From Candidatus Microgenomates bacterium (GTDB lineage: Bacteria; Patescibacteriota; Microgenomatia; Daviesbacterales; UBA10151), in NCBI GenBank assembly GCA_016182045.1, contig JACOYE010000008.1, forward strand, positions 502 through 64,501: a stretch of DNA of 64,000 nucleotides, in the 5' to 3' direction. Position numbers and translations under genes: made by a program. Positions 1,900 through 59,869 of this stretch are shown one piece after another. The notes under the pieces were generated by a model that was given only the letters and a program-made list of their open reading frames with translations, was not told the DNA's origin and made no database searches. The number at the start of each line of letters is the position of its first letter. Position 1 is the stretch's first letter.

Positions 1900-3204
1900 T
1901 TAAAGACCCTGCATTGAGGAAGTAACTAGTTTTTTTGTCACAGTTATTCCTTCTCTTGTAACAAACACAAAGGGATAACTACTAGTATCACCTGTTTGTT
2001 GATACTTTTCCCAAGCACTCACAACAGATTCAAATACCCTGGTATCTGCATCATATTCATCAGCCGCGCTTTTCTCACCTTCGCTTTCGTAGTGGAAAGC
2101 CTCATGTCTCAAGGTAGTGCCGGCAGTAAAAGGTTCGCTGTATCTGTGGTAGGCTTTTTCCCTCCCTACATCTCTTAATTGAGGTATCCATGGATATTCC
2201 TGAAACCAACCTGGTTCAAGATAAGATTGCTGAGGATGTGGTTTGAACTCACCCCCAACCACAATATAAATAAAGACCTGATTGTGCAATTCAGGATAAT
2301 TAACAAAGAGCTCTTTGTGTCTTTGCTCAAGTTGGGGGTATTTCCCTTTATACTCTTCCTTCATTTTTTGATAGCGGTCCAAACGGGTAAAAGAACCCTG
2401 TGGTCCACCATTTTCTGCTTCATGAGCAATTGCCCTGGGTTGATCCCTAAGTATTGCTAACTCTTTGTTTCCTTCGTCAGCTAGACTTTGATTACTTGCA
2501 ATATTTTCCTCATATTCCTTTTTCAGCTCTCCGTTTTTAATCTTTCTAAGTTTCTCTTCCCAATACCTTAGGCTTTCCTCGTATTCACCTCTAAGCTGTG
2601 GAGAAGTGATTTCTTGAATCCACCTCTGATAGTCAGCAATACTCTCCTCTACCTCTTTTTGATACTCACCAGTAGTAAATTTACTCATACGCTCCTGCCA
2701 CGATTGTATGCGTTCTTGTGCCGATTTTACATCATCCTCTGCTTGCTTAATTTTAGATCGCCAATAATCTTCTGGTTCCTCTTGGGGATGAACACTGAAT
2801 GCTTGCCATACCAAACGAGCTTCCTCAGATAATTTTTCACTTGCATTCCAGCTAAGGCTTGTGTGATCGACCAAAACAATATTAACTCCCACAATTTTCC
2901 CTTCTTTTGCATCTTTAAAAAGAGGAAAATCAAAAATACCTTCTCTCAAATAAAGCTTGACCCGCGAAGTCTGATAAATACGAATACCGTTAATTCTCAG
3001 TTGTTCAGGTTCAAGCAAATCATTAAATTTTTCTCTCGGCGGAACATCTGGAACCGGCAGTTTATCTAATAAGCTTCTTATCCATCCTAAGTTCACTTCT
3101 ACCAACACAGCACCTACTCCTCCAATCGTTACTACAGTACCCTTAAGAAATGTCCTTCTTGAGAGACGATGGTGCTGAACTCCTGGTTCTGCTTCTTGAC
3201 TCAT
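1900..3204 (-). CDS. hypothetical protein with a twin-arginine-like signal (SRRTFLKG) and tandem EY..W..K coiled-coil repeats
   Basis: Long ORF with an N-terminal RR motif plus hydrophobic segment and repeated EYEESLRYWEEKL-like units. No recognisable catalytic motif. Confidence 0.5.
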   Translation of the reverse strand: MSQEAEPGVQHHRLSRRTFLKGTVVTIGGVGAVLVEVNLGWIRSLLDKLPVPDVPPREKFNDLLEPEQLRINGIRIYQTSRVKLYLREGIFDFPLFKDAKEGKIVGVNIVLVDHTSLSWNASEKLSEEARLVWQAFSVHPQEEPEDYWRSKIKQAEDDVKSAQERIQSWQERMSKFTTGEYQKEVEESIADYQRWIQEITSPQLRGEYEESLRYWEEKLRKIKNGELKKEYEENIASNQSLADEGNKELAILRDQPRAIAHEAENGGPQGSFTRLDRYQKMKEEYKGKYPQLEQRHKELFVNYPELHNQVFIYIVVGGEFKPHPQQSYLEPGWFQEYPWIPQLRDVGREKAYHRYSEPFTAGTTLRHEAFHYESEGEKSAADEYDADTRVFESVVSAWEKYQQTGDTSSYPFVFVTREGITVTKKLVTSSMQGL

Positions 3205-3284: not shown

Positions 3285-3350
3285 GTCATCGCGAGGCTAC
3301 GAAGTAGCCGTGGCGATCTAATAAGATTGCTTCGCTACGCTCGCAATGAC
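3285..3350. repeat. intergenic GC-rich palindromic element (GTCATCGCGAG...CTCGCAATGAC), a member of the repeat family also found inside CDSs
   Basis: Imperfect ~66 bp palindrome with GTCATYSCGAG termini and an internal hairpin GGCTAC-GAA-GTAGCC. It is much more GC-rich than its surroundings. Confidence 0.6.
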
Positions 3351-3388: not shown

Positions 3389-4510
3389 CTACTCTTGGGG
3401 GGTCTCTCCAACAACAGCTGTCAGTTTAAGATCTTGACCATCTCTCCAGATTTGTAGCTTCAGACTTTGACCGATATTTGCCTTTGAAATAATTTCAGCC
3501 ACTTTATTTTCCGAATCAATTGAGTTGCCGTCAATTTTAGTAATAATATCCCCTTCTAAAACCCCGTCTTTTTTTGCCGGACCATCCTCCAAAACTTCCT
3601 GGATATATGCTCCTTGCGGCACTTCATTTAAGATGGCCACATCTTTGGAGATAAACCTATATCTTATTCCCAAAAATGGTCTTGACACAGTTCCTTTGGC
3701 AACAAATTCATCAACAATTTTTTTGACAGAATTGATAGGTATGGTAAAACCAATATTTTCAGCACCCTCTGTTGTTGCCACGTTAACCCCAATCACTTGC
3801 CCTGCAGAATTTAGAAGAGGACCCCCTGAATTACCGGGATTGATGGCAGCATCGGTCTGAATCAAGTTATCCAATCTTTCAAAGGACCCTTCAAAGGGAT
3901 CCCCTGCCACTACAGCTCTACCCAGTCCGGAAACTACCCCTGTTGTGACAGTATTGGTAAAACGACCCAGGGCGTTTCCGATGGCAATTACAGTTTGTCC
4001 CACCTTTAGTGTTGAAGAGTCACCTAAACCTAAAGGTTTTAAGTTTGATCCGTCTATTTGTACTATGGCCAAATCCAACAAAGGATCTCTATAGATTCTT
4101 CTTACCTCATATTTTTGCCCATCCTTTGTCACAACGCTGTATCGTCCTTCCTCCCCTACCACATGCTTATTGGTGACAATAATTCCCTTCTCAGATACCA
4201 CAAAGCCCGTACCAATGGTTGCCTCTTCTCTGGTGGGGATGGAGAAAGGATCAAAGGGATTAACGACTCTTCTTGATACACCAATTGCCACCACAGATGG
4301 GGATGCTTTCTCGGAAGCAGAAATGACTGCATTTTCTTCCTGAATAATTGTTCTGGTTTCTTGGGGAGGAAGAGGTTGTGGAGTGAAATCACCCCTTGGT
4401 ATTAAACCTCTTACTTGAGCCTGATACAAACCAACTGCCACCAACACTCCCAAAGATATGGCTAAAACTATACCTGATAAATTTGGTCTAGGTAATTTTG
4501 AATAATCCAT
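3389..4510 (-). CDS. htrA: HtrA/DegP-family serine protease (trypsin-like domain plus PDZ)
   Basis: GNSGGPL catalytic-serine motif, a TNKHVV histidine region, a C-terminal PDZ-like domain and an N-terminal membrane anchor. Confidence 0.85.
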   Translation of the reverse strand: MDYSKLPRPNLSGIVLAISLGVLVAVGLYQAQVRGLIPRGDFTPQPLPPQETRTIIQEENAVISASEKASPSVVAIGVSRRVVNPFDPFSIPTREEATIGTGFVVSEKGIIVTNKHVVGEEGRYSVVTKDGQKYEVRRIYRDPLLDLAIVQIDGSNLKPLGLGDSSTLKVGQTVIAIGNALGRFTNTVTTGVVSGLGRAVVAGDPFEGSFERLDNLIQTDAAINPGNSGGPLLNSAGQVIGVNVATTEGAENIGFTIPINSVKKIVDEFVAKGTVSRPFLGIRYRFISKDVAILNEVPQGAYIQEVLEDGPAKKDGVLEGDIITKIDGNSIDSENKVAEIISKANIGQSLKLQIWRDGQDLKLTAVVGETPQE

Positions 4511-9610: not shown

Positions 9611-9696
9611 TTTTCTATACCCTACTTTCCATTTTCTCTTAATTTTAAATTTTTAATTTGTAATTTTTAATGAAAATTTAAAATTTTAAATTTCAA

Positions 9697-9730
9697 ACTC
9701 CGTTATCTTCTAATTAGAAGATAACGGAGT
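9697..9730 (-). terminator. perfect 15-bp hairpin (ACTCCGTTATCTTCT-AATT-AGAAGATAACGGAGT) overlapping the rpsF stop codon, followed by a T-rich stretch on the minus strand; possible attenuator between rpsF and ssb
   Basis: The inverted repeat is visible in the sequence, and downstream on the minus strand is TTGAAATTTAAAATTTTAAATTTTC. Confidence 0.4.
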
Positions 9731-11591: not shown

Positions 11592-12685
11592 CTACTTACC
11601 AAAAATTCAATTACATCCCCATCTTGGATTACATAATCCTTCCCCTCAGTTCTAATCCAACCTTTAGATTTTGCTTGAGCATAAGATCCAGCCTCAATTA
11701 GTTTTTCATATTCTATAACTTGCGCTCTAATAAAGTTTTTTTCAAAATCAGTATGAATTACTCCAGCTGCTTGGGGAGCTCTTGTTCCAGATTTAATGGT
11801 CCATGCTCTCACCTCTTTTGGTCCAGCTGTTAAAAATGAAGTTAAACCTAAAAGCTGATAAGCTTTTTTAATTAGCCTTTCCAAACCTGTTTCTTCTATT
11901 CCCAGCTCTTTCAAATAATCTATCCTTTCCTGATCGGACAAGTCAATTAATTCCTCTTCCAGCCTAGCTGAAATTACCATCTCATTCTTATAACTACCAC
12001 GATCGTAGAGTTGTGATTTATAGTCTTGTTCTGAAACATTGTAAACATATAAAATTGGTTTTATAGATAAAAGTGGCAAGTGTAAAAACCAACTCCTCAA
12101 TCTTTCATCCCCAATATTATATTGGCCGAGCCCTCTCCCATTTTCTAACTCATCTTTTATTTGTTTAAGTATTGCCAGTTTTTGAGATTCTAAAGGATCT
12201 TTTGATACCCTGGTTTCTTTCTCTTGATATGTACATAGCTTTTCTACGGTTTCTAAATCAGCTAGAGCCAACTCTGTTTCCACAGTTAATTTATCAGCAT
12301 CAGGGTTTTCTGATCCAGCGCGAGCCACAATTTGATCCTCAAAGTCTCTTAAAACATGGATTATGGCATCAACTTCTCTGATGTGGGATAAAAATTGGTT
12401 TCCCAACCCTTCTCCTTTATGGGCTCCTTTAACTAAACCAGCTATATCCACAAATTCCACAATAGCTGGAACTACTGGAGGCGGAGACTCCATTTTCTCC
12501 TCTTTCTGCACCAGCTCTGCAAGTTTTTCCAATCGCTCATCAGGCACTGCCACCACCCCCACATTCGGTTCCACTGTGGCAAATGGATAATTGGCTGAAA
12601 GTGCCACTCTTTTTTTCAAAAGAGCATTAAAAAGTGTACTTTTCCCTACATTTGGTAATCCCACTATCCCAACTCGTAGACTCAT
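11588..12685 (-). CDS. ychF: ribosome-binding ATPase YchF (Obg-family GTPase with a C-terminal TGS domain)
   Basis: P-loop GIVGLPNVGKSTLFNAL followed by the YchF-type region ANYPFATVEPNVGVV. A TATAAT box lies at 12693-12698 on the minus strand upstream. Confidence 0.9.
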   Translation of the reverse strand: MSLRVGIVGLPNVGKSTLFNALLKKRVALSANYPFATVEPNVGVVAVPDERLEKLAELVQKEEKMESPPPVVPAIVEFVDIAGLVKGAHKGEGLGNQFLSHIREVDAIIHVLRDFEDQIVARAGSENPDADKLTVETELALADLETVEKLCTYQEKETRVSKDPLESQKLAILKQIKDELENGRGLGQYNIGDERLRSWFLHLPLLSIKPILYVYNVSEQDYKSQLYDRGSYKNEMVISARLEEELIDLSDQERIDYLKELGIEETGLERLIKKAYQLLGLTSFLTAGPKEVRAWTIKSGTRAPQAAGVIHTDFEKNFIRAQVIEYEKLIEAGSYAQAKSKGWIRTEGKDYVIQDGDVIEFLVSS

Positions 12686-12759
12686 ATCCTATATTATACC
12701 CATCTATGGAAAATAAAACTGAATAGACAATTGAGTTATTTTGTTATAGTTTCGCTAGA

Positions 12760-12917
12760 TTGACAAACTTGGAGATTTGTAGTAAAAAGGCCCTGACGGT
12801 AGCCAGAATATACAATCCGACTACTCGTTTACTTAACTTCATGTAGTTGGTAACCTGACTACCGCCACTAACATGAAGGCAGTGACATTCGGGTGGCGTG
12901 GACGCGCCACCTTTTTT
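12760..12917 (+). ncRNA. candidate small RNA (~120 nt): TTGACA-17-TAAAAA promoter, then a transcript ending in an intrinsic terminator (GGTGGCG-loop-CGCCACC plus T6)
   Basis: TTGACA at 12760-12765 and the -10 box at 12783-12788. The hairpin is at 12892-12911 and T6 at 12912-12917. No plus-strand CDS exists upstream that the terminator could serve. Confidence 0.3.
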
Positions 12918-14535
12918 AAACAGTCTCACCTAACTTATGAATTCCTAAAATCTCCTTCACTTTCCTTATTATAGCTTTTGAGGAAATCTCTTCATAATCC
13001 AAAAGCTCTTGTGGTTTACCGCTTTTGGGCATTTTTTTAACTGCCAGAGAATATATCTTCCTATTTTGATTTGCTAAAGCAGACGCAACTGCCTCTCCTA
13101 TTCCTCCCTCTTGAAAATGATCTTCCACAGTTATTAGAGCTTTTGTCTCATCTTGAGCTTTCTTAAGAGTATACATATCCAGTGGTTTAACCGAATAAAG
13201 ATCAATTACTCTAATTGTTATCCCCATCTTTTTTAACTGATCAAATGCTTGTAATGCTTCATAAACTGTAATCCCAGCTGCCACCACAGTAACCTTATCT
13301 TCCTGAGATTGTTTCAAAATTTTACTTCCACCAATGGGAAATTTTTCATCATTTTTATATAAAAGAGGCATTTCTTTTCGGGTGGTTCTGATATAGACAA
13401 TTCCCTTGTGTTTGGCTGCCTCTTCCACTAATTTTTCTGTTGAGGTAGCATCCGATGGGTATAAAACTACACTTTTCAAAAGTGTCCTGAACATGGCAAT
13501 ATCCTCAAGGCCCATCTGGGATGACCCATCTTCACCAATGGATACTCCGGCATGGGAGCCGACAAATTTAATATTGACTCCGGAATACTGACTCATCCGG
13601 ATTTGATCAAAGGCCCGGGTAAAAAAGGCGGCAAAAGTGGAGACAAAAGGAATCTTGCCCATCTGGGACAAACCGATTGCCACTCCCACCATATTCTGCT
13701 CGGCAATAAACATCTCAAAAAATCTCTCAGGATATGCCTTTTTAAAAATTTCTGAATAAGTGGAATTAGAAACCTCGGCATCTAAAACTACCATGTTAGG
13801 AAACTTGGGGAATATCCTTACCAAAGCATTTCCATAAGCCTTTCTTGTCGCCACCAGATCACCTTGAGCATATTTGACAGAGTCAGTATAATTTTTTGAA
13901 CCGACTCTGTCATCCCGAGCGACTCCGACGTAAGTCGGAGGAGTCGAGGGATCTGGCTCGGCAATTTTTCCACGCAACTTCACATCCATATTTCCCAGCT
14001 CCTTTAAAGCTTTCTCCAACTCCTCAGAATTCAGTGCCTTACCATGCCATCCGTTCCGATCCTCCAAAAAAGATATTCCCTTACCTTTAATTGTTTTGGC
14101 CACAATCACAATTGGTTTATCTTTTACTTTTTGAGCTTTTTTAAAAGCATCCATAATTTCCTTAAAATTGTGACCATTTATCAAAATAGTCTCCCATCCA
14201 AAAGCAGCAATTCTTTTTGAGTAAGCTTTTATATTATGACCATACATGGTCTGGCCTCTTTGGCCTAATCTGTTAACATCCAAAATACCCACCAGATTAT
14301 CCAATTTATAGTGGGCGGCAATTTGAATTGCTTCCCAGACAGCCCCTTCTGCCATTTCACTATCACCTAACAGTACATAGGTTTTGTAACCTGATTTATC
14401 AACGTACTTGGCATTTAATGCCATCCCCATTCCAATAGAAAGACCCTGCCCCAAGGAACCGGTGGCTGCCTCCGTATATGGGAAAAGCATGGTTGGGTGA
14501 CCCTCCAACTTAGAGCCGAATTTTCTTAAAGTCAA
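12916..14535 (-). CDS. tkt: transketolase main body (TPP, Pyr and C-terminal domains); the reading frame has no ATG and continues from the N-terminal fragment in another frame
   Basis: LEGHPT...GSLGQGL...VLLGDSEMAEGAVWEA (TPP-binding) and later a ...SQMGLEDIAMFR-like Pyr domain. An in-frame repeat insert lies at 13905-13958. Confidence 0.8.
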   Translation of the reverse strand: MTLRKFGSKLEGHPTMLFPYTEAATGSLGQGLSIGMGMALNAKYVDKSGYKTYVLLGDSEMAEGAVWEAIQIAAHYKLDNLVGILDVNRLGQRGQTMYGHNIKAYSKRIAAFGWETILINGHNFKEIMDAFKKAQKVKDKPIVIVAKTIKGKGISFLEDRNGWHGKALNSEELEKALKELGNMDVKLRGKIAEPDPSTPPTYVGVARDDRVGSKNYTDSVKYAQGDLVATRKAYGNALVRIFPKFPNMVVLDAEVSNSTYSEIFKKAYPERFFEMFIAEQNMVGVAIGLSQMGKIPFVSTFAAFFTRAFDQIRMSQYSGVNIKFVGSHAGVSIGEDGSSQMGLEDIAMFRTLLKSVVLYPSDATSTEKLVEEAAKHKGIVYIRTTRKEMPLLYKNDEKFPIGGSKILKQSQEDKVTVVAAGITVYEALQAFDQLKKMGITIRVIDLYSVKPLDMYTLKKAQDETKALITVEDHFQEGGIGEAVASALANQNRKIYSLAVKKMPKSGKPQELLDYEEISSKAIIRKVKEILGIHKLGETV

Positions 14536-14758
14536 AAGCTTGCTCTCGCTGATTAGGATTTTTGGGATCTTTTAAATCAAAATGAAAAAATCCACCAAAG
14601 CAAAGAGCTACCATCAAATCAGTTGCAGATAAGGAGGAGGTGGGGTGCCCTGACCCTGCTTGGGTGGTAGATATCAGAATAAAGTAACGAATCAGTTTTG
14701 CTATTTTTTTTAAATCCCCAGCATTCATGACAACAAACTTTACCACATCATTATACAA
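14510..14758 (-). pseudogene. tkt: transketolase N-terminal fragment (82 aa) in a different frame from the main body; apparent frameshift and deletion
   Basis: AGSGHPTSSLSATDLMVAL...NPNQ matches the transketolase N-terminus and ends ...FDFKKIRL*. The expected GH(G/A) histidine segment is absent from both frames. Confidence 0.55.
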
Positions 14759-14786
14759 TTGATCAATTTTGCAATATAATTAATTT

Positions 14787-16121
14787 ATGGACTTTTTCTC
14801 AATTGTAACAAAGCTTCTTCTCAGTTTTGCCCTGGGAGCCCTGATTGGCCTGGAAAGAGAAGTTAGTGAGAAAAAAATCATCAACCGCCACAAACCCCCT
14901 ACAGCGGTATTGGGTCTAAGAACCTTTTCGCTGGCTGCAGTCTTAGGCGCACTCACAGGCATTTTATATTCTGATTATTTAATAGTTGCAACTGTTCTGA
15001 GTGTAGCTTTCTTATCCCTACTTTTGGTCTTTTATATCTTTGATAGTTACACAACAAAAGATATTGGCTTTACCACAGAACTAGCTATGGTTTACAGCTT
15101 CTTAATAGGTATTTTCGTCAGTTTAGACATCTTGCCTATTCAACTTATCATTGCTTTGACAGTTGTTTTGGTGTTACTGCTTTCAAGAAAACCGGAAGTT
15201 AAAACTATTGTGGCAGGTATTCAAAGAAGTGAGATAAATGCATTTTTAAGTTATGCCATTATTGCTCTGGTGGTCCTGCCCTTTTTGCCGAATATTTCTT
15301 ATGCTCTATCTGATATCCCCCAAGTTGGTGTATTTTTAAAAAACTTTGGTTTTGACGTGAGTATAGTCTCGCAAATTGATTTGATAAATCCCTTCAAACT
15401 TTGGCTTTTTGTGGCACTTATCACCGGCATTGATTTGGCAGGATATTTTCTGGAAAAAACAATTGGACGGAAAAAAGGATGGTTGATTGCCTCAGTAGCA
15501 GGAGGATTTGTCTCATCTACTGCCACCACCCAATCTTTGGCCCAACAAAGCAAAACTTCAAAAAGCGTAAACCATCTTTTAGGTGCAGCCATAATTTCAA
15601 ATTCGGTTAGTTTTCTTCAGATTGCCATTTTGATTTCCACAATTAATTTTGCTTTATTTTTAAAAATCATACCGACAATTTTAGTTATGTCCTTTATGGC
15701 TACTTTGATTGCCGCATATTTTTTTAACATCAAAGAGGAATTTGCAGATACTTTAGGAAGTAAACTTAAGCATAGGATTTTTAATTTGACTTCTGCATTA
15801 AAATTTGTCAGTTTGTTTGTGGTGATAAGTATCTTGTCTAAATTAACCCTCAAATTTTTTGGTGAAAGTGGTTTTTTGGCAACCACTGCCATTGGCTCTC
15901 TGGTAGGATTGGATGCAGTCATGATTAACACTGCTCAGCTAACACAAAGCGTGATTGATTATCGTTTGGGACTGATGGCATTTATAACAGCCAATGCCGT
16001 CAATCTTTTGGGGAAAAGTTTTTATAGTTTTATTTTGGGTGATCGGATATTTGCCCTAAAATTCTTTATCTCAATTGTCCTTATCATTTTGGCAAGTTTT
16101 ATGGGGTTATTATTTATATGA
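14787..16121 (+). CDS. MgtC/SapB-family membrane protein with an extended DUF4010-like C-terminal membrane domain
   Basis: N-terminal LGALIGLEREV motif typical of MgtC and multiple transmembrane segments. Confidence 0.65.
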   Translation: MDFFSIVTKLLLSFALGALIGLEREVSEKKIINRHKPPTAVLGLRTFSLAAVLGALTGILYSDYLIVATVLSVAFLSLLLVFYIFDSYTTKDIGFTTELAMVYSFLIGIFVSLDILPIQLIIALTVVLVLLLSRKPEVKTIVAGIQRSEINAFLSYAIIALVVLPFLPNISYALSDIPQVGVFLKNFGFDVSIVSQIDLINPFKLWLFVALITGIDLAGYFLEKTIGRKKGWLIASVAGGFVSSTATTQSLAQQSKTSKSVNHLLGAAIISNSVSFLQIAILISTINFALFLKIIPTILVMSFMATLIAAYFFNIKEEFADTLGSKLKHRIFNLTSALKFVSLFVVISILSKLTLKFFGESGFLATTAIGSLVGLDAVMINTAQLTQSVIDYRLGLMAFITANAVNLLGKSFYSFILGDRIFALKFFISIVLIILASFMGLLFI

Positions 16122-16126
16122 TAACT

Positions 16127-17992
16127 CTACTCTGTTTTGAAATACCAGCTTTTACTCCAGGGAACTGGCTGTCCATCACCTTGTATCCTGGGCCGAACGC
16201 GCCAATAATAAGTGGTATCTGAATCAAGATCAAACCATGACATCCAAGAATTTAAAGGATCACTCTCCCCACCATGAACCAGATTCCAATATACTGCAGC
16301 TTTAGCTTTGTGAGGATCTGTTTCAAAGTTGGGATCTTTGGATAGTTGAATTTCATAGTAGAAAACATCTTTATCGCTGTTATCCCAAACAAGAGTTGGT
16401 CTAAGGGAGCCTGTTATCTCACCTTCCCCCAGATTTAATGGCACAATACTATCGGAATCCCTCTCGGGAGTATGCAACCTAAATTTTATCGGAGGACTTG
16501 AGGCTTCTTTCAAAGGATAAGGGTAAAATTTTCCCCAATCAGGCGAATCAGCAGCAAGTGGGACATTGGCACCTGATATCCAAATTTCGAAATCAGGATA
16601 ACTCATATCAGGAAGAAGTATATAGTTACCTTCACCAAGTTTTGGAGCTTTTATCTCATAGCCGTTTTCTTCAAACTCTTTTAATTTTTGTGTGTCACCA
16701 TAAATCATAAAAATACCTGGCCCATCAGGCTGACCTGTGGTGGGATTTGCTACGGGAATAAGTTTTACCATGATTTGAGTTATTCCCTTAGGAAGCTGAA
16801 GGTGGGCGAGAATATCCATATTGTTTAACTGTATAACCTGCTCTGATTCCTCACCTTGTTTTATCATATTTCCTTGAATTTCAGCTCTAAATTCTGGTTT
16901 GTTGTAGCGGCGAGATACAGATTCTTTACCATTAAGCATTTCTTCCAACCACCAGGAATTAAGTTCGCCAAAAGTTGCATACTCAGGTGAAAGTGGCGGG
17001 GTATTCATCACATTATGCCTGCTGGTCCGCCAAGCCCCTCTTCTCTGAGAACTACATCCCTCGTATCTTTTACCAGGATCGCCTGGTATACCTTCCCAAT
17101 TGGGCTCTTCGGTGCAATTCCAATGTTTAGTTCCAACTGGCAGTGGGTTTGTATATGCCCAAGGGTAAACATATTCATCTAATAGATCAAGGATACCATG
17201 TCCGGCAAGCTCATGGGCAGCAATCATTTTGTCTGGAAAATCCGGGTTTGGTGGCAATCCGATTATGGCTGCTGTATCAAGACTTGGCGGAACTCTACCT
17301 TCATCAAGAGCTGTTCCTCTTCCCATTACTTCATTGGTGTTTCTAAGAATAACTGTCTCTTGCATGAAAATGCCAGTGGCCTCGATAGTCCTATCTCTTT
17401 CTCTTATTAGTTCAGAAGATGCGTCCCCTGGTACATCGGCGGAAGTTCCACAAAATATCATCCTTTTACCTTCTGGACCAAACTCAAAGCATCTCATATT
17501 TTCCATTCCAGTTGGATCACGAACCCAGAAGGTAAACTTATCAAGAAATTTTTCAAGAGGACGTACTAAATAAAAATATTCCACCAATTGACGTGATCTC
17601 TGTTTGGCTTCTTCAAAGGAGGAAAAATTATCCGGCAGAATAAGGATATTGATGTTATTAGGCTGATTTTCTCCGAAAATACGGGTGATGGTCACCCCCT
17701 GATTGGAAATCGTTTCAAATTCCCCTGTCACCACTTGGACTGGATTTTCGGGCATTTCCAGTTGGCTCAGATCATCTGGTCGCCAGCCAGATAAAAAGAG
17801 TTGATTATTCGGTTGATAAACTGGTGAGTTGTCAGAACTTCCATATCTACTGATATCTGTGGCAGCACTAAATACCAGCGGTACGGCTAAAACAGTATGC
17901 TTAATTAGCCTCAAGAGATTGAATCTATCTCTTTCTTTTTGTTTCTGATAATCTATCTTTAAATCGGGATAAAATCCTTCTATACTGCTCAT
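16127..17992 (-). CDS. membrane-anchored secreted protein, possibly metallopeptidase-like, with a C-terminal fibronectin-III-like domain
   Basis: N-terminal transmembrane segment, AAHELAGHGILDLLDEY (HExxxH...DEY, resembling M64-like peptidases but not canonical HExxH), and a C-terminal TYYWRVRP FN3-like signature. Confidence 0.4.
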   Translation of the reverse strand: MSSIEGFYPDLKIDYQKQKERDRFNLLRLIKHTVLAVPLVFSAATDISRYGSSDNSPVYQPNNQLFLSGWRPDDLSQLEMPENPVQVVTGEFETISNQGVTITRIFGENQPNNINILILPDNFSSFEEAKQRSRQLVEYFYLVRPLEKFLDKFTFWVRDPTGMENMRCFEFGPEGKRMIFCGTSADVPGDASSELIRERDRTIEATGIFMQETVILRNTNEVMGRGTALDEGRVPPSLDTAAIIGLPPNPDFPDKMIAAHELAGHGILDLLDEYVYPWAYTNPLPVGTKHWNCTEEPNWEGIPGDPGKRYEGCSSQRRGAWRTSRHNVMNTPPLSPEYATFGELNSWWLEEMLNGKESVSRRYNKPEFRAEIQGNMIKQGEESEQVIQLNNMDILAHLQLPKGITQIMVKLIPVANPTTGQPDGPGIFMIYGDTQKLKEFEENGYEIKAPKLGEGNYILLPDMSYPDFEIWISGANVPLAADSPDWGKFYPYPLKEASSPPIKFRLHTPERDSDSIVPLNLGEGEITGSLRPTLVWDNSDKDVFYYEIQLSKDPNFETDPHKAKAAVYWNLVHGGESDPLNSWMSWFDLDSDTTYYWRVRPRIQGDGQPVPWSKSWYFKTE

Positions 17993-18033
17993 AGAATTAA
18001 TTAGTTGAATATTATACAGCTATTAGACAATTT

Positions 18034-19083
18034 ATGCATAAACTGACTGTTTTAGTATCTTTGATATTACTGGGAATAGCTGGTTTTGTTATTTTTAATA
18101 GAGTACCACAAGTCATTCCGCCTCAGACCGAAGATAAAAAAGAAGTCCCCCGCTTTGAAGTGATAGCCAGAAATTTAGAAGTTCCCTGGGCTTTGGCATT
18201 TTTGCCTGATGGAAAGATCTTAGTAACAGAAAGAAAAGGTATTGTAAAACTAGTAGATAAAAATGGAGCAGTAACAGAGGTGGGTAAGATAAATGTCACA
18301 CAGGTTAGTGAAAGTGGATTACATGGGATAGCTATCGATCCAAAATTCTCAGAAAATCATTATATTTACTTATATTATACTTACTCAACAAATGGTGATA
18401 ACACATTTAACAGAGTTTCCAGATTTAATTTTGATAGTAGTTTAAAGAGTGAAAAGATCATTATTGATCAGATACCTGGAGCCCCTAACCATGATGGAGG
18501 TAGAATTAAGTTTGGTCTAGGTAACATGCTTTACATCACCACCGGTGATGCCCAAAATCCATCTTTGGCTCAAGACAAGGAGTCATTTGCAGGAAAAATC
18601 TTAAGAGTCACTCAGGAAGATAAAATAGAGATTTTCTCCTATGGCCATAGAAACCCGCAAGGAATTACTTGGGATGACATGGGTAATCTATGGGAAACAG
18701 AACACGGACAGACAGCAACTGATGAGATAAATCTTATCCAACCAGTACGAAATTATGGCTGGCCAATTATTAGAGGAGATCAATCTCAAAAAGATATGGC
18801 TTCCCCCTACATACATAGTGGTTCCAATACTTGGGCACCAGCTGGAGTGGCTTTTTTCAACGGCTCACTTTACTTTGGAGGATTAAGAGGCCAGGCTCTT
18901 TTTGAATATAATATTGAAAGAAAGCAGTTGAAAGAACATTTTAAAGGACAATTTGGTAGACTCAGGGAGGTTGTTTTGGGACCGGACAATATGCTTTATA
19001 TCACCACCTCAAACAGAGATGGTAGAGGTAATCCTCAACCTGAGGATGACAAAATCATCCGTATGAATCCAGAAAAACTTTAG
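18034..19083 (+). CDS. PQQ-dependent soluble sugar (glucose/sorbosone) dehydrogenase-family beta-propeller protein
   Basis: Signal/transmembrane segment, then FLPDGKILVTERKG...GLHGIAIDPKF...GHRNPQGITWD, typical of the SGDH/YliI family. Confidence 0.7.
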   Translation: MHKLTVLVSLILLGIAGFVIFNRVPQVIPPQTEDKKEVPRFEVIARNLEVPWALAFLPDGKILVTERKGIVKLVDKNGAVTEVGKINVTQVSESGLHGIAIDPKFSENHYIYLYYTYSTNGDNTFNRVSRFNFDSSLKSEKIIIDQIPGAPNHDGGRIKFGLGNMLYITTGDAQNPSLAQDKESFAGKILRVTQEDKIEIFSYGHRNPQGITWDDMGNLWETEHGQTATDEINLIQPVRNYGWPIIRGDQSQKDMASPYIHSGSNTWAPAGVAFFNGSLYFGGLRGQALFEYNIERKQLKEHFKGQFGRLREVVLGPDNMLYITTSNRDGRGNPQPEDDKIIRMNPEKL

Positions 19084-27772: not shown

Positions 27773-27832
27773 AATTTAAAATTTTTAATTTTTAATTTGA
27801 ATTCAAATTTTAAATTTCAAATTTGAAATTTT
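27773..27832. repeat. AT-only intercistronic element with perfect palindromes AATTTGAATTCAAATT and AAATTTCAAATTTGAAATTT; member of the AT-rich intercistronic repeat family
   Basis: Shares the TTTAAATTTTTAATTT and AAATTTTAAATTTCAAA blocks with 9641-9695, 53502-53607 and 59756-59869. Confidence 0.5.
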
Positions 27833-31863: not shown

Positions 31864-33381
31864 TTATTCCCATTCCATTGTTGCCGGGGGTTTGGTGGTG
31901 ATGTCATAAACTACCCGGGAAACTCCTGGGACTTCATTAACTATTCTGGATGAGATTTTCTGCAAAATCTCATACGGCAGTTTAGACCAGACAGTTGTCA
32001 TCACATCTTTGGACTCAATAATTCTTACTGCCATAACTTCTAAGTGGGCCCGCTCATCCCCTTTGACAGCCGTACTTTTGGTATTTGTTAAAATTGCAAA
32101 ACTCATATAAACTTTGCCATAAAGCTCGGCTTTTTTGATTTCCTCTAAAACAACTGCATCTGCCTGTTGCTGTCTTTCCAAACGCTCCTTTGTTACCTCC
32201 CCAATAATCCTGATTGCTTGACCCGGACCTGGAAAAACTTGTTTGAAGACAACTTCTTTTGGTAACCCCAATTTTTCTCCAATTAACCTAACTTCATCTT
32301 TATAAAAATCCCGCAAGGGCTCAAGAAGTTCCAAGTTCATCTCATCAGGCAATCCCCCCACATTATGATGCGATTTAATCTTATCTGCTTTTTTGGTCCC
32401 TTTACTTTCAATCACATCAGAATAAATTGTTCCCTGGGCCAAAAACTTTACCCCTTTTAACTTTTTTGCTTCTCTTTCAAATAATTCTATATAGATTTTG
32501 CCAATGGTTTTTCTTTTTTCCTCCGGATCCGTAATACCTTTGAGGGCTGAAAGAAATTCCTTCTCTGCCTCAACAATGATCGGGGTAATTTTTAAATGTT
32601 TTTGGAAAATTTGTAAAACTTCCTCTTTAGTTCCTACCCTCATCAGTCCGCTTTCAATATAAATGGGATATAAATTTTTGCCAATGGCTTTTCCAATAAG
32701 AGTTGCTGCGACAGTTGAGTCAACACCTCCAGAAACAGCACAGATAATTTTGTTATTTCCCACCCTTTCTTTGATATCTTTAATAACCTTTTTAATATCA
32801 ATCTTTTTTTTGGAAATCTTAAGTCCGCAAATATTTTGGGCAAAGTTTATCAGTATTTCGTTACCAAAAACAGTATGATCTACCTCAGGATGAAACTGGA
32901 CCCCAAAAATCTTTTTGTCTAAATTTGCTACAGCTGCTGCTTTAACATTTTCAGTACTTCCCAAATATGTAAACCCTTTAGGAATAGTTACTACGCTGTC
33001 ACCATGACTGACCCAGACAATGGAATTATTCTCCACACCTTGTAGGATAATTCCTTCATTTATGATATTAAGATTTGCCGGCCCATATTCTTTATGTCCC
33101 CCAACTACTTTCCCTCCTAAAAGATGGGCAGTCAGCTGCCAACCGTAACAAATACCAAGAATTGGAATTCCCAAACTAAAAATTTTTTTATCAATAGTAG
33201 GGGCGCCTTTTGCATAAACAGAAGCCGGCCCTCCGGAAAGAATAATCCCTTTTGGCTTAAACTTCTTAATCTCGGAAAGAGCATCTTCAGGCTGGATAAT
33301 AGTCACAGCAATGCCGTGATCCCGCAACCTTCTGCCAATCAAATGACAAGTTTGTGATCCAAAATCAACTATAATAATCAT
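31864..33381 (-). CDS. guaA: GMP synthase (glutamine-hydrolysing)
   Basis: N-terminal GATase (IIIVDFGSQ...GICYG), ATP-PPase SGGVDSTV and C-terminal ...KPPATMEWE. Confidence 0.9.
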   Translation of the reverse strand: MIIIVDFGSQTCHLIGRRLRDHGIAVTIIQPEDALSEIKKFKPKGIILSGGPASVYAKGAPTIDKKIFSLGIPILGICYGWQLTAHLLGGKVVGGHKEYGPANLNIINEGIILQGVENNSIVWVSHGDSVVTIPKGFTYLGSTENVKAAAVANLDKKIFGVQFHPEVDHTVFGNEILINFAQNICGLKISKKKIDIKKVIKDIKERVGNNKIICAVSGGVDSTVAATLIGKAIGKNLYPIYIESGLMRVGTKEEVLQIFQKHLKITPIIVEAEKEFLSALKGITDPEEKRKTIGKIYIELFEREAKKLKGVKFLAQGTIYSDVIESKGTKKADKIKSHHNVGGLPDEMNLELLEPLRDFYKDEVRLIGEKLGLPKEVVFKQVFPGPGQAIRIIGEVTKERLERQQQADAVVLEEIKKAELYGKVYMSFAILTNTKSTAVKGDERAHLEVMAVRIIESKDVMTTVWSKLPYEILQKISSRIVNEVPGVSRVVYDITTKPPATMEWE

Positions 33382-34181
33382 TTTCCCTCCTTTGCAAACT
33401 TTATCATATCTTCAAATATAAAAGCTCCATGAGGTTTAATTATTTTCTCTCTTCTCCAGTTGGGGTATTGGGTAACATCAACAAACTTTTCCGGATGTGG
33501 CATCAATCCTAATACTCTTCCAGAAGGATCAGTCACTCCAGCGATAGCATTTAAAGATCCGTTTGGATTCTCAGGATATTTTTGTGTGGGATTGCCTTGC
33601 TCATCAACATACCTAAAAGTGACCAGATTCTCATCTTCAATTTTTTTAATAATTCCGGGACTAGAGAAAAATTTACCTTCTCCATGATTTACTGAAAACC
33701 AACCCACTTGATTATTTTCTTTTAAAAATACACAGTTACTTTTATTACTCTTTATTCTTACCCATCTGCATTCAAAATGTCCACTACTATTTGCGGCCAA
33801 AGTGGCATCCATTTTGCCTAAATTTCCAAAAGGCAAAAGCCCGGTTCTTATTAAAACCTGAAATCCATTACAGATTCCGATAATTAATCCCCCTCTTTTT
33901 CTAAAATTTTCTATTTCCTCTCTTAAAAAACTTACTAGCTCAATTGCCCAAATTTTTCCGGATGCCACATCATCTCCATAAGAAAATCCTCCAGGCAAAG
34001 CCAGAATATGAAAATCTTTCAGAGTTTTGGATTTGTTCCTTAACTCATTAACATGAACAAACTGTGGACTCCCCCCAAACTTTTTAAAAGCATAAAAAAG
34101 TTCATTATCACAATTAGTCCCATCAGATTGTAGTATACAAACATTTACTTCTCGCCCTGAGCGAAGTCGAAGGGTTTTCAT
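33378..34181 (-). CDS. purQ: phosphoribosylformylglycinamidine synthase glutaminase subunit (PurQ), with an 11-aa repeat-derived N-terminal insert
   Basis: GTNCDNE...LPGGFSYGDD class-I GATase. Residues 3-13 (TLRLRSGREVN) are encoded by a copy of the GC-rich repeat. Confidence 0.85.
   Translation of the reverse strand: MKTLRLRSGREVNVCILQSDGTNCDNELFYAFKKFGGSPQFVHVNELRNKSKTLKDFHILALPGGFSYGDDVASGKIWAIELVSFLREEIENFRKRGGLIIGICNGFQVLIRTGLLPFGNLGKMDATLAANSSGHFECRWVRIKSNKSNCVFLKENNQVGWFSVNHGEGKFFSSPGIIKKIEDENLVTFRYVDEQGNPTQKYPENPNGSLNAIAGVTDPSGRVLGLMPHPEKFVDVTQYPNWRREKIIKPHGAFIFEDMIKFAKEGK
34149..34175. repeat. GC-rich repeat copy (CTCGCCCTGAGCGAAGTCGAAGGGTTT) inserted in frame after codon 2 of purQ
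   Basis: Near-identical to the inner unit at 35891-35917 in purL; GC-rich relative to its flanks. Confidence 0.6.
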
Positions 34182-34825
34182 AAGTTTTTAATATCTTCTA
34201 TAGATAATTCATCAAATGCACTAATGACTCGATCAGCATTTTGCAGCTTATCTTTTGTCACACTTGTTGCTATGGCAATGCATTTCATACCTGCAGCTTT
34301 GGCTGCCTTTATTCCGCTTGGTGCATCTTCAATAACTAAACAGTCCGATGATGAAATTCCAAGTTTTTTAGAAGTTAACAAAAATATCTCAGGATTTGGC
34401 TTACCTTGTTTAACTTCATCACCTGAGACCACTGCACTAAATTTTTCCTTAATAGAAAGACTGCTGAGAATAATCGAGATAAACTTCTGGTTTGTTGAAG
34501 AAGCGAGTGCTAGGGGATATCCATGTTTTTGAAGTTTCTCAATAAGATCAAGTGAGCCTGGTACAAGAGGGATAGATTTATCCGAAAGTTTTTTATACAC
34601 TATTTCCCATTTCTTTTTTCTCAGTTTCTCAATATCTTTTATAAGATGGCGTTTTGCCATATCTTTAAACATCTCTGTATCCTTCCAGCCAGAGTAACTG
34701 TTTATTATTTCCTCAGGTGTTATATGAATTCCAATAGTGGCAAAGACTTGGCTTTCTGCCCCAGATTGAATCGCTTCTGTTCTGGTAATAACTCCATCCA
34801 TATCAAAAATTACTGCTTTAATCAT
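34178..34825 (-). CDS. HAD-superfamily hydrolase, subfamily IA (beta-phosphoglucomutase-like)
   Basis: DxDGV motif I (IFDMDGVIT) and motif IV (IEDAPSGIKAAKAAG). Confidence 0.75.
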   Translation of the reverse strand: MIKAVIFDMDGVITRTEAIQSGAESQVFATIGIHITPEEIINSYSGWKDTEMFKDMAKRHLIKDIEKLRKKKWEIVYKKLSDKSIPLVPGSLDLIEKLQKHGYPLALASSTNQKFISIILSSLSIKEKFSAVVSGDEVKQGKPNPEIFLLTSKKLGISSSDCLVIEDAPSGIKAAKAAGMKCIAIATSVTKDKLQNADRVISAFDELSIEDIKNL

Positions 34826-37695
34826 GGAAATATCTCTTTCATTGGCGCTTGCCAGGCTTGTTGTAATCTGTCCATATCAACTGTAAATAATCCATCAACC
34901 ACCAACTTCTCATCCTGTGTAGTTTTTCCTAATATTTTGTAAGGCACTCCTTCAAATAATTTTTTAGCAGTTGTCTCATTTTCAACTTCCATTACAAAAC
35001 ATCCAGCTGTTTCATTAAGAAGAAAACCACCTCGAAGGTGGGCTTTCTTGTCCCGAGCGAAGTCGAGGGAGACTCCTTCGAGGTGAAGCCGAACCCCACA
35101 ATTTCCGCCAACACACATTTCAAAAATGGTTGTAATCAGGCCTCCTTCTGAAACATCATGGCATGCTAATACTTTTCCACTAACAATTGCTTTGTGCACT
35201 TTATCCAAAACCTTCGGTAAAACTTTCAAATCAACTCTGGGGATGCTACTTTCCAAATCCTGCTTACCAACCAGTACAATTGTTGACCCAGCTTTTTTAA
35301 AATCAGAAGAAACAGTTTTTTTAACATCAGGAATTTTGCCAAATACAGACATGCAAAGTGTTGGAGGACTGTGTATCACCACCCCACTAGAGCCACGATA
35401 TGTGGCAGATAAACTGTCTTTGCCAGAAATCACCGGAATCTTTAAAGTCTTCATAAAATCACAAACAGCATCTACTGATCTATCAAGCGACCACAACCAT
35501 TCTTTATCAGGAAACGGCCAAATATAGTTATTAACCAGCGATGCATCTTTGTAATTACCACCAACTGCCACATAATTAGAAATTGCCTCAGTTGCAGACC
35601 AGACACTTCCCCAATATGGATCCATCATGCTAAATTCAGGATTTAATCCATGAGAAACAACCATTCCATAGGGTTTATCCAAAAGCGGCTTAATTACTGC
35701 TGCATCATTTGGCCCATCCATTCCCACCCCTGCAAAAGGATGCAAAGCATTTGTTCCCTGAACATTATGATCATACATCCTCAAAATTGGCTCTTTTGAA
35801 TTAATATTTCCATTAGCTAAAACTTTCTCTAAAACCTTCGCCCAAACCATTTTGTCATTCCGAGCGATTAGCGAGGAATCTCTCAACTTGCCCGCCCTGA
35901 GCGAGGCCGAAGGGTTTGAGATACTCACATTCGTCAGAGATTCTTCACTTCGTTCAGAATGACGAGGAGAGATAGCTCTCATCACCCTTTGTGGCAATCC
36001 TTCAAACAAAAAACTCATTTCCAAATCTCCCACTTTTTCTTTTCCATAAAATACCTGTAATCTTTTACTGCCGTCAAACTCTGCAATCTCTGAAGCCTGG
36101 ACATTATATTTTTGACATATCTTTAAAAATTCTTTCAGATTATCTTTTGAAAGAATTATTAACATTCTTTCTTGAGATTCTGAAAGGAAAATTTCCCAAG
36201 GAGCAAGTCCTTGATATTTCAAGGGTGCCTTTTCCAAATGAACAGTCGCTCCAGTTTTTACTCCCATCTCACCAATAGCAGATGAAAATCCACCAGCTCC
36301 CAAATCTTGAACTGCCCTTATTAAATCTTTATCCCGCGCTTCTAAAATTGCATCAAATACTCTTTTTTCCTCAATTGCATTTCCAATTTGCACAGCTTGG
36401 GAGTTAACTTCCATGGTTTTTTCACTCATCTCAGCAGAGGAAAAAGTGGCTCCGTGTATTCCATCTCTTCCCGTCCTTCCTCCGATAACCACCCCTACAT
36501 CACCAATTTTTGGATAGCCTTTTTTAGCTTTACTTTTAGGTAAAATTCCATATGATCCAACCAGTACAATTGGTTTGGCTCGAAAATCCTCATGAAAATG
36601 AAATGAACCATTATTTGTAGGTATCCCCACTCTATTGCCATAATCCCTAACAGCAGCCACTACTCTTTTTAACATATAGTCAGGAGGCAATGTCCCGGCA
36701 GGTAATTTACTTTTATCTAAATCATAAGGAGCAAGACAAAAAATATCTGTTGATACCAAACTTTTTGCGCCCTGGCCTGTTGCTACCACATCTCTAAAAA
36801 CTCCACCAGATCCAGTCATTGCCCCACCATATGGTTCTATTGCAGAGGGTGCATTATGAGTTTCTGCTTTTCCATTAATTGCCCAACCTTCATAAAAATC
36901 CATCACCCCTGCATTGTCCACAAACGCTGAGACAATATTTTTGTTATGTTTCAGCGCTTCCTTTTTAATTCTTTCAAAAAGCGGTGCCTTGTTTTTCCCA
37001 TCAACTAAAAGTCTTGCTTTAAAAGTTTTATGAGCACAATGTTCACTCCAAGTTTGGGCTAGAGTCTCAAGTTCTAAATCTGTGGGATCTCTTTTTATCT
37101 TTTGAAAATAATTTTGTATCACTTTCATCTCTTCTAAATTTAAAAACAACTTATCTTTTGAAAGTTCTAATAGCTGTTCATCATTGATCCGCCTTAGGCG
37201 GATAATATTCGTTTTTGCAGGAATGTCTTTGATAAGAAGAGTCTTTTGTTTCTCCTTCACAAAATGCTCAACCATTTCATTAAGAAGATGCAATTTCCTG
37301 GCAATATCCTCTATCTCTTGATGTGTTACTTTTCCATAAAAGCCATATTCATGAGAGGAGTCAGCTGCAATAAGTTTAATTCCCAAATCCTCTGCAGTTT
37401 TAAGAATTGACCCAACTTCTGGATTCATTACACCTGGTCTGTAAGCAATCTCTATAATCTGATTTGCTCCTTTTATTATTGGAGAGTTTAAAGTATATTC
37501 CTGATAAATACCTTCACAAAAAACTGTCTCCGCTAAAACTTTTGCCTCTCTCTCGCTTACACCTTCCAATCTATAAACTTTGGCAGTCTCCACTTTTGTG
37601 ATGTTTTTGATTCCCATCTGATAAATGTCATTTAAAACTCCCTCACCAATCAGGTCTTTTCCCATAACATTTTTTACTCTGATTATATGTATCAT
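34822..37695 (-). CDS. purL: phosphoribosylformylglycinamidine synthase large subunit (PurL) with a ~185-aa N-terminal extension of PurS-like modules and two repeat-derived in-frame inserts
   Basis: Core PurL motifs (WSEHCAHKTF, GGRTGRDGIHGATFSS, AIGEMG). The N-terminal region resembles PurS twice. Inserts lie at 35854-35963 and 35049-35095. Confidence 0.85.
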   Translation of the reverse strand: MIHIIRVKNVMGKDLIGEGVLNDIYQMGIKNITKVETAKVYRLEGVSEREAKVLAETVFCEGIYQEYTLNSPIIKGANQIIEIAYRPGVMNPEVGSILKTAEDLGIKLIAADSSHEYGFYGKVTHQEIEDIARKLHLLNEMVEHFVKEKQKTLLIKDIPAKTNIIRLRRINDEQLLELSKDKLFLNLEEMKVIQNYFQKIKRDPTDLELETLAQTWSEHCAHKTFKARLLVDGKNKAPLFERIKKEALKHNKNIVSAFVDNAGVMDFYEGWAINGKAETHNAPSAIEPYGGAMTGSGGVFRDVVATGQGAKSLVSTDIFCLAPYDLDKSKLPAGTLPPDYMLKRVVAAVRDYGNRVGIPTNNGSFHFHEDFRAKPIVLVGSYGILPKSKAKKGYPKIGDVGVVIGGRTGRDGIHGATFSSAEMSEKTMEVNSQAVQIGNAIEEKRVFDAILEARDKDLIRAVQDLGAGGFSSAIGEMGVKTGATVHLEKAPLKYQGLAPWEIFLSESQERMLIILSKDNLKEFLKICQKYNVQASEIAEFDGSKRLQVFYGKEKVGDLEMSFLFEGLPQRVMRAISPRHSERSEESLTNVSISNPSASLRAGKLRDSSLIARNDKMVWAKVLEKVLANGNINSKEPILRMYDHNVQGTNALHPFAGVGMDGPNDAAVIKPLLDKPYGMVVSHGLNPEFSMMDPYWGSVWSATEAISNYVAVGGNYKDASLVNNYIWPFPDKEWLWSLDRSVDAVCDFMKTLKIPVISGKDSLSATYRGSSGVVIHSPPTLCMSVFGKIPDVKKTVSSDFKKAGSTIVLVGKQDLESSIPRVDLKVLPKVLDKVHKAIVSGKVLACHDVSEGGLITTIFEMCVGGNCGVRLHLEGVSLDFARDKKAHLRGGFLLNETAGCFVMEVENETTAKKLFEGVPYKILGKTTQDEKLVVDGLFTVDMDRLQQAWQAPMKEIFP
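35049..35095. repeat. GC-rich repeat copy in frame near the PurL C-terminus (encodes ..GVRLHLEGVSLDFARDK..)
   Basis: TCCCGAGCGAAGTCGAGGGAGACTCCTTCGAGG; its core matches the 34149-34175 element. Confidence 0.5.
35854..35963. repeat. composite (nested) GC-rich palindromic element in frame in purL, adding about 37 aa (ISPRHSERSEESLTNVSISNPSASLRAGKLRDSSLIARNDK)
   Basis: Outer termini are GTCATTCCGAGCG...CGTTCAGAATGAC. The inner unit CGCCCTGAGCGAGGCCGAAGGGTTTG matches the purQ copy. Confidence 0.65.
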
Positions 37696-53501: not shown

Positions 53502-53607
53502 AAATTTTAAATTCTAAATTTTTAATTTTTATTCAAATATAAATGTCTTAATTTTAAATTTTTAAACATTTAAAATTGATTTAAAATTTCAAATTGAAAA
53601 TTAAAAA
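53502..53607. repeat. AT-rich intercistronic repeat R1 (106 bp) between yqeY and ybeY; about 90% identical to R2 at 59756-59869
   Basis: Alignment of the two regions shows only one 11-nt indel and a few substitutions. Confidence 0.6.
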
Positions 53608-59755: not shown

Positions 59756-59869
59756 GAATTTTAAATTCTAAATTTTTAATTTTTATTCAAATCTGAATGA
59801 CTAAATTTTAAATTTTTAAACATTTAATCATTAAATATTGATTTAAAATTTCAAATTGAAAATTAAAAA
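59756..59869. repeat. AT-rich intercistronic repeat R2 (114 bp) between frr and rseP; near-identical to R1
   Basis: See R1. Confidence 0.6.

Follow-up and report, generated by a model that had tools for sequence, protein, structure and literature searches.

A REP-type palindrome probably fixed in frame in the inter-domain linker of a Microgenomates transketolase

Introduction

How does a palindrome come to lie in the reading frame of a core gene, and does its presence mean that the gene is decaying? The question is raised by a 64,000-nucleotide stretch of DNA from a Candidatus Microgenomates bacterium (assembly GCA_016182045.1, contig JACOYE010000008.1, positions 502 to 64,501; hereafter the window), in which an imperfect palindrome lies within the transketolase gene (tkt), on the strand opposite to it. 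An earlier note, made from the sequence alone, had described this palindrome as an in-frame insertion with the termini of a repeat family. It had also pointed to a frameshift near the 5' end of the same gene and proposed that tkt may be under relaxed selection or actively remodelled. Here, we report that the palindrome is probably a non-autonomous element of the repetitive extragenic palindrome (REP) type, nearest to the CGTC/TGTC-tagged REPs, that was fixed, in frame, within the linker joining the PP and Pyr domains of Tkt in an ancestor of the window lineage and the lineages of two orthologs, P0002 and P0003. The 5' lesion is a separate event, unrelated to the element.

Results

The element is a 45-mer (GTCATCCCGAGCGACTCCGACGTAAGTCGGAGGAGTCGAGGGATC) at window positions 13909-13953 (+ strand), inside a 539-amino acid open reading frame (ORF) of tkt at 12916-14535 (- strand). 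The insertion is in frame, as the earlier note had claimed: the reverse complement of 13905-13958 is translated in the Tkt frame as AEPDPSTPPTYVGVARDD, and the element proper encodes DPSTPPTYVGVARDD, 15 amino acids that occupy residues 284-298 of the intact protein. Four of its six reading frames are open. Together with its flanking T residues (13908-13954, +), the sequence is T-GTCAT-CCC-GAGCGA-CTCCGAC-GTAA-GTCGGAG-G-AGTCGA-GGG-ATC-T, which is organised in layers. An unpaired 5' tag, TGTC (13908-13911, +), is a variant of CGTC as the tag is defined in PMC3733652. A 5-bp outer stem then pairs ATCCC (13912-13916, +) with GGGAT (13948-13952, +), after which comes the tail CTG. Within this stem, GAGCGA stands opposite AGTCGA, and between these two halves of the family loop motif is nested an inner hairpin (13923-13940, +) with a 7-bp stem, CTCCGAC/GTCGGAG, and a GTAA loop. 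A second hairpin, H1 (13875-13912, +), adjoins the element, overlaps its tag, and shares its first four bases. H1 has 13-nucleotide arms (TGACAGAGTCAGT / ACCGACTCTGTCA) with one mismatch and a 12-nucleotide loop, and encodes part of DDRVGSKNYTDSVK.

A strict family rule (GTCAT-NNN-GA...GA-N'N'N'-ATC) has three matches in the window, one of them the tkt copy, whereas 300 dinucleotide shuffles gave 0.01 on average, so the palindrome is indeed of the family type that had been described. A looser rule that considers the termini only gave six matches against 3.4 expected, which is not significant on its own. The RNA of the 123-nucleotide tkt linker is predicted to fold at -53.6 kcal/mol (z = -6.7), compared with a mean z of -0.66 for control windows of the same gene; a 76-nucleotide region folded alone with DNA parameters was unremarkable (z = -1.13). 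The same element sequence is present in three assemblies from at least two sequencing runs. [quoted passage not shown]

The gene itself (12916-14728, -; start as in P0001, MNAGDL...) is a short, human-type transketolase that is interrupted in this assembly, and human-type transketolases are also its best solved relatives. The Carboxydothermus transketolase is split into two chains (6yak, 6yaj), whose alignments to intact Tkt cover residues 5-269 and 317-620; the element, at residues 284-298, is therefore within the segment at which split enzymes have their gene boundary. An AlphaFold2 model built with 61 orthologs (mean pLDDT 88, pTM 0.90) is nearly all coil at residues 270-301, with pLDDT below 50 at 291-304. 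Hence, the insertion site is, by this prediction, a flexible and disordered linker that joins the PP and Pyr domains. We measured linker length as the distance from WHGK to TRKAYG, which is 53 amino acids in 56 of the 69 orthologs and 63 here, so the gene does carry extra sequence relative to most orthologs, as had been proposed. The distance is 59 amino acids in L002, the DNA of P0002, and 66-72 in three other lineages.

Other Tkt lineages have acquired family members in the same linker. Orthologs P0020, P0120, and P0074 have linker peptides such as VIANEVKQS...SPRNDK, and the DNA of this group (L124, L125, and L126) contains inverted family dimers in the linker at positions that differ from that of the window copy. 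The Tkt linker has thus been colonised independently and repeatedly by family dimers in other Tkt lineages. Element-bearing linkers have fold z values of -2.6 to -6.7, whereas ordinary 53-amino acid linkers (mean z = -0.31) fold like controls (-0.33). We therefore rejected messenger RNA (mRNA) structure as a general property of Tkt linkers and assign the structure to the inserts rather than to tkt mRNAs at large.

Two further linkers may hold palindromic inserts. One (L316, Ga0163144_10002955) is of the normal 53-amino acid length, yet has a z of -6.4; the other (L257, Ga0213870_1000633) is 68 amino acids long (…SSEAKPRMTRRSEVDKFSTSS…) with a z of -4.1.

The insertion is old. The closest distinct ortholog, P0002, is 77-78% identical to Tkt in amino acids and 75% in nucleotides, with synonymous divergence (dS) of ~1.7, and a metagenome scan for closer Tkt relatives found none above 72% identity. 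L002 has, at the identical nucleotide position and with orientation and frame unchanged, a related 33-nucleotide palindrome, GTCATCCTGATCCGGCAAAGCCGGAGAAGGATC; P0003 has DPSSLITPQDD at the position of the element, and more distant Tkt orthologs have no such segment. Comparison of these sequences suggests fixation in the common ancestor of the window lineage and the P0002/P0003 lineages. The idea of active remodelling by a recent insertion consequently fails: the earlier note had taken orthologs with the same segment as the result that would speak against it, and within the clade (P0002/L002 and P0003) such orthologs exist. Independent re-insertion at the same site is less parsimonious, and it would not explain H1.

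The arms of both hairpins have changed together since the split. In the outer stem, CCC/GGG of the window corresponds to CCT/AGG in L002 (arms ATCCT/AGGAT, a compensatory change), and in the inner stem TCCGAC/GTCGGA corresponds to TCCGGC/GCCGGA; H1, which reads TGACAAAGTGAGT/ACTCACTTTGTCA in L002, differs by two compensatory double changes, that is, at two positions in both arms. RNAalifold recovered the two adjoining hairpins with four pairs doubly changed, one wobble, and none broken; the inner-stem change is additional to these four and comes from a manual alignment, MAFFT having misaligned the inner stem. Several of the stem changes cost radical amino acid replacements (R/Q, D/H, and S/F). 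By hand, we estimate the probability that all pairs were kept by chance at ~1e-3 to 1e-4, assuming independent sites, 15-25% change per site, and ~23 stem pairs in the manual alignment (RNAalifold scored 19). The linker fold is about equally strong in the two lineages (z = -6.7 in the window lineage and -6.4 in that of L002). Template switching between arms is a known behaviour of quasi-palindromes. Either the pairing has been selected, or mutations have been copied from arm to arm by such switching.

The 5' frameshift seen in the earlier note is real in the window but is confined to this assembly. Translated frame by frame, the N-terminal 60 codons of tkt are in another frame than the rest, and ~25 codons are missing. 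A contig of the Logan assembly of run SRR12113420 (L001) matches window 12603-18885 at 100% identity apart from 74 additional bases. With these bases, which have AAT at their flanks, NDRLIFSKGHASPLFYSLYAAAGA is restored and Tkt is 628 amino acids long, the element included. Another run, SRR12113424, gave a contig identical to L001. The window thus has, relative to L001, a 74-nucleotide deletion with its junction at 14552-14554 (-), at an AAT microhomology, which removes NDRLIFSKGHASPLFYSLYAAAGA and shifts the frame. Residues N60-P72, within the deleted stretch, are invariant in 61 orthologs, and the window allele would therefore be null; all other invariant Tkt residues are retained. Comparison of the intact allele with L002 gives a ratio of nonsynonymous to synonymous change (dN/dS) of 0.085. 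Hence, purifying selection on tkt as a whole is strong, and the proposal of relaxed selection is not supported. The deletion may be an assembly artefact or a null allele in the population, and it illustrates that a lone metagenome-assembled genome (MAG) is no safe basis for inferring gene decay.

Relatives of the element are widespread. The 25-nucleotide core (GTCATNNNGAGCGNAGCGANNNATC) occurs at 120 or more loci in GTDB contigs (one genome per species), against ~17 chance matches expected by our own calculation for the whole collection. By record title, these loci belong to Acidobacteriota, Chloroflexota, Planctomycetota, Bacteroidota, Nitrospirota, Gemmatimonadota, Proteobacteria, Firmicutes, and CPR groups. 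At least 120 matches were also found in IMG/VR viral contigs. Plasmids of cyanobacteria, Hymenobacter, Granulicella, and Phocaeicola carry further ones, in some cases under annotated coding sequences (CDS). We derived family statistics from 160 sites in the GTDB genome matches listed. The NNN and N'N'N' triplets are complementary at 139 of the 160; T occupies position -1 in 77% (C in 16%) and position +1 in 81%. Canonical relatives have a 5-bp stem and an 11-nucleotide conserved centre, ~28 nucleotides overall, with the tail consensus C-T-c. Adjacent units, spaced 4-89 nucleotides apart, are mostly inverted with tags outward (+-, 51; -+, 11; ++, 10; --, 5). An ORF of at least 60 codons on each side spans 17% of the sites; for positions drawn at random from the same loci the figure is 64%, so the family is mainly extragenic.

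We found no gene that travels with these sites. Searches with E. coli RayT (tblastn and jackhmmer) found no REP-associated tyrosine transposase (RAYT) in the 64-kb window, and among the 120 genome loci gave one weak RAYT-like fragment (L094, 1.2 kb from the site). All-against-all clustering of the ORFs within ~8 kb of the sites in 240 loci revealed no recurrent neighbour gene in genomes. Clusters from viral contigs were dominated by one group of related phages: 35 of the 120 IMG/VR matches listed share a capsid-like cluster, from which it follows that one such group carries the element. In one of these phage contigs (L148), the element is located just upstream of a gene (...LPVILSEAKNL...). 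Seven 25-nucleotide cores are repeated on one strand with an exact 105-nucleotide period at 3563-4217 of L017 (Bacteroidaceae MAG JAZNUE010000016.1), a tandem array and not a dispersed set. In Planktothrix agardhii plasmids (matches H3 and H4; NZ_LR882964.1 and NZ_LR882951.1), family-like units lie under CDS for an MmeI-type restriction-modification enzyme and BREX PglX, which suggests in-frame copies in cyanobacterial defence genes.

The window contains six tagged and three tagless units at six loci. The tagged units, which obey GTCAT-NNN...N'N'N'-ATC, are the tkt copy and those at 3285-3318, 3325-3350, 35854-35880, 35939-35963, and 55186-55218; the copies at 3350 and 35963 carry the tag CGTC. 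All six start their stem with AT...AT, as do L002 and the genome-wide sites. The tagless units, at 34156, 35052, and ~35891, have the centre GAGCGA(A)GTCGA in common with the tkt copy, and those at 35052 and 34156 share the loop GAGCGAAGTCGA and have the loop motif GAGCGA/AGTCGA with no nested hairpin. The tkt element thus looks like a GAGCGA(A)GTCGA core with a hairpin of 18-20 nucleotides nested in its loop.

Besides the tkt locus, three lie in frame within long ORFs. Scanning the window for hairpins in general gave too much noise for a census, but it revealed H1 and a GC-rich palindrome at 35028-35085, CACCTCGAAGG...TCCCGAGCGAAGTCGAGGGA...CCTTCGAGGTG, which is in frame in a purL-like ORF (34822-37695, -) and encodes about HLEGVSLDFARDKKAHLRGG. 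Its GC content is 60%, against 38% for the genome, and its centre is the tkt core devoid of the nested hairpin. The same ORF holds three units in a row at 35854-35963: a tagged unit, the tagless GCCCTGAGCGAGGCCGAAGGG, and a tagged unit in opposite orientation, with the in-frame peptide PRHSERSEESLTNVSISNPSASLRAGKLRDSSLIARNDK. Here, the best full-length match (3viu) is gapped or poorly aligned, and matches to PurL of the T. maritima type (2hs0, 1vk3, and 3d54) end at residue 564. A 33-nucleotide unit, GTCATTCTGGGGAGCGCTAGCGACTCCAGAATC (55186-55218), is in frame in a trigger-factor-like ORF (tig; 54601-55692, -) and encodes DSGVASAPQNDK. The tagless unit near 34156, GCCCTGAGCGAAGTCGAAGGG (34153-34175), lies in the first codons of a purQ-like ORF (33378-34181; MKTLRLRSGRE...); the true start of this ORF may be a downstream GTG, in which case the unit would belong to the 5' untranslated region. 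Outside genes, units of 34 and 26 nucleotides, 6 nucleotides apart, form an inverted family dimer at 3285-3350, between an HtrA-like ORF (3389-4510, -) and the ORF at 1900-3204 (-).

A second family of palindromic repeats, almost pure A+T (AATTTTAAATTTTTAA...; 4-7% GC), is found at 9641-9685, 27773-27816, 53548-53604, and 59804-59857. Directly after the first of these AT-rich repeats, at 9697-9730, is a perfect palindrome with 15-bp arms, ACTCCGTTATCTTCT-AATT-AGAAGATAACGGAGT, which may be a terminator or operator. Peptides such as IQNSKFKI, which occur in many Tkt linkers of the CPR, could have arisen from similar AT-rich repeats.

Discussion

We consider it probable that the tkt palindrome is a REP-type, non-autonomous element, fixed in frame in the PP-Pyr linker before the window lineage and the P0002/P0003 lineages diverged. 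The open frame, the 45-nucleotide length, and the purifying selection on the gene together predict that it is read through as 15 extra residues in a low-confidence coil linker. Elements of this kind would spread as single-strand hairpins through an enzyme acting in trans, and inside genes only those copies with a length divisible by three, free of stops, and in permissive linkers would survive. The hairpin would since have been kept symmetrical, through selection on DNA or RNA structure or through arm-to-arm templated repair of quasi-palindromes, and the Tkt enzyme would gain nothing from it. Several observations weigh against this account. The element has no target-site duplication, and close relatives offered no empty-site allele. 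Neither the window nor the 240 loci (120 genome and 120 viral) yielded a mobilising enzyme, so mobility is read from the distribution alone. The net gain in linker length is 10 amino acids for a 15-amino acid element, and part of the original linker must therefore have been lost or replaced. The hairpin has been conserved through dS of ~1.7, more than a purely neutral passenger predicts. Compared with CGTC REPs, which have perfect stems of 8-9 bp and loops of 4-5 nucleotides (PMC3733652), the tkt element has five Watson-Crick pairs, mismatches of the G.A type, and a nested hairpin; its tail, CTG, agrees with their CCA in the first base only.

That H1 and the element are instead maintained by selection for a role at the nucleic-acid level, such as slowing ribosomes at the domain boundary, stabilising or processing the transcript, or binding a protein, is in our judgement unlikely. 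A domesticated pair of hairpins, as opposed to a passenger, would fit the four double compensatory pairs between window and L002 (plus the manually aligned one in the inner stem), with one wobble and none broken, the radical replacements that stem changes have cost (D/H, S/F, and R/Q), and the strong linker fold in two lineages; the purL and tig elements are likewise located in inter-domain or poorly aligned stretches. However, tkt generally needs no such structure, as ordinary Tkt linkers are unstructured, the family is mostly extragenic and in unrelated contexts, and the comparison rests on two DNA sequences from the clade. In addition, template switching from arm to arm is established to give 'compensatory' patterns in the absence of selection. 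A broader proposal, to which we also assign a low probability, is that the tkt hairpin pair, and perhaps the purL and tig copies, are kept for a nucleic-acid function, or else that hairpins of the form T-GTCAT...ATC-T, which occur in many phyla, are propagated and kept symmetrical by a widely shared enzyme other than RAYT. If this were true, the elements would be more than junk, and CGTC-type REPs would have a testable mechanism.

It is very unlikely that the palindrome and the 5' lesion are joint symptoms of relaxed selection on a tkt gene that is pseudogenising or actively remodelled. The window copy is frameshifted and lacks 74 nucleotides, including the codons for the invariant N60-P72, but two other runs with otherwise 100% identical DNA have the intact 628-amino acid gene, dN/dS is low, all other invariant residues are retained, and the element predates the split from L002. 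Hardly credible, finally, is a chance origin within coding sequence or a chimeric assembly: the 76-nucleotide DNA fold and the termini-only rule, taken by themselves, would allow it, yet it is contradicted by the strict family rule (3 matches against 0.01 expected), the RNA fold of z = -6.7, the recurrence of the sequence in three assemblies, and the homologous palindrome at the same site in L002.

Under the favoured account of an old REP-type insertion, the locus has several implications. Intragenic palindromes of the REP type that are read through have been known mainly from Rickettsia and a few Proteobacteria; they are now seen in a CPR-like small genome, where three core genes (tkt, purL, and tig) within 64 kb carry in-frame elements. 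The repeated colonisation of the Tkt inter-domain linker is a natural marker of insertion-tolerant sites, and the co-evolving arms within a coding region are a clean case in which to separate structural selection from palindrome-correcting repair. Peptides derived from the family (...ARNDK, VI.SEAK.., and DPS..RDD) also inflate protein alignments.

Among known repeats, MITEs have terminal inverted repeats with a target-site duplication and are related to an insertion sequence, whereas no duplication borders the tkt element and the family shows a single T on each side throughout. To our knowledge, no mobilising enzyme has been identified for CGTC REPs, whereas GTAG REPs and REPINs have RAYT (TnpA_REP), a Y1 HUH transposase whose gene typically has its REPs on either side. 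Our family and GTAG REPs both have hairpins with a conserved, unpaired tetranucleotide at the 5' end and with stems that covary; both form inverted doublets and are bordered on each side by C-T, like the sites that RAYT cleaves. The enterobacterial REP loops AAGCG-N-AGCGC resemble the GAGCG-N-AGCGA centre here. Our family differs in its tag, which is TGTC or CGTC and not GTAG (or GTGG); no RAYT was found in the window or within ~8 kb of the 240 sites, apart from the weak L094 fragment. Elhai and colleagues, in 2008, reportedly described the small dispersed repeats (SDR) of heterocystous cyanobacteria as mobile repeats of 21-27 nucleotides that can lie inside genes and inside each other, of which the nested hairpin here is reminiscent.

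The Rickettsia palindromic elements, RPE-1 and its relatives, are similar in their in-frame position within housekeeping genes; they are translated as extra peptide and are thought to be tolerated at permissive surface sites. The tkt element, too, is an in-frame insertion at a permissive site of a conserved gene, most of whose orthologs do not have it. RPE-1 is, however, ~100-150 bp long with its own conserved peptide, whereas the element here is 45 nucleotides long and its peptide varies with the sequence of the stem.

The closest described kind, judged by sequence features, is the CGTC/TGTC-tagged super-family of REPs (CGTC-1 to -4; Di Nocera, De Gregorio & Rocco, BMC Genomics 2013; PMC3733652), which includes Neisseria dRS3 and Rickettsia conorii RPE-6 and RPE-4. 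These REPs have the tag CGTC or TGTC, complementary A/T at the first stem positions, and a 3-nucleotide tail with the consensus CCA; they are mostly extragenic, predominantly as inverted dimers with spacers of 20-100 bp, and have no dedicated transposase (PMC3733652). Their in-frame intragenic units encode 9-30 amino acids and are most numerous in R. conorii, as RPE-4 and RPE-6 (PMC3733652). Our family shares several of these features: the tkt element has the unpaired tag TGTC at 13908-13911, a stem that starts A-T then T-A, and a short unpaired 3' tail, and its relatives are dispersed, mostly extragenic, and often inverted dimers, with some in-frame intragenic units; no transposase flanked by the repeats and no recurrent neighbour was found in the 120 genome loci. 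Peptides of R. conorii dimers (SFLRKQES...DSRFRGND) resemble ...ARDD, ...ARNDK, and ...PRNDK here and thus point to the same termini, GTCATTCC...GGAATGAC.

The differences lie in detail and in range. Relatives here have a 5-bp stem, a CT(c) tail, and a conserved centre, GAGCG-N-AGCGA, that is not described in PMC3733652, although canonical units (~28 nucleotides) are of similar total length to CGTC REPs, and the tkt copy carries the further nested hairpin, 45 nucleotides in all. The centre possibly combines tandem G.A pairs with a GCGNAGC mini-hairpin; GCGNAGC, which lies within it, is described in PMC13037366 as an unusually stable DNA mini-hairpin. CGTC REPs were reported from five phyla, mostly from Alphaproteobacteria (PMC3733652), and the taxonomic range of the core found here is much wider. 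We suggest that the tkt element is a new member, arguably of a new sub-family, of an already known kind of repeat in a new group of hosts.

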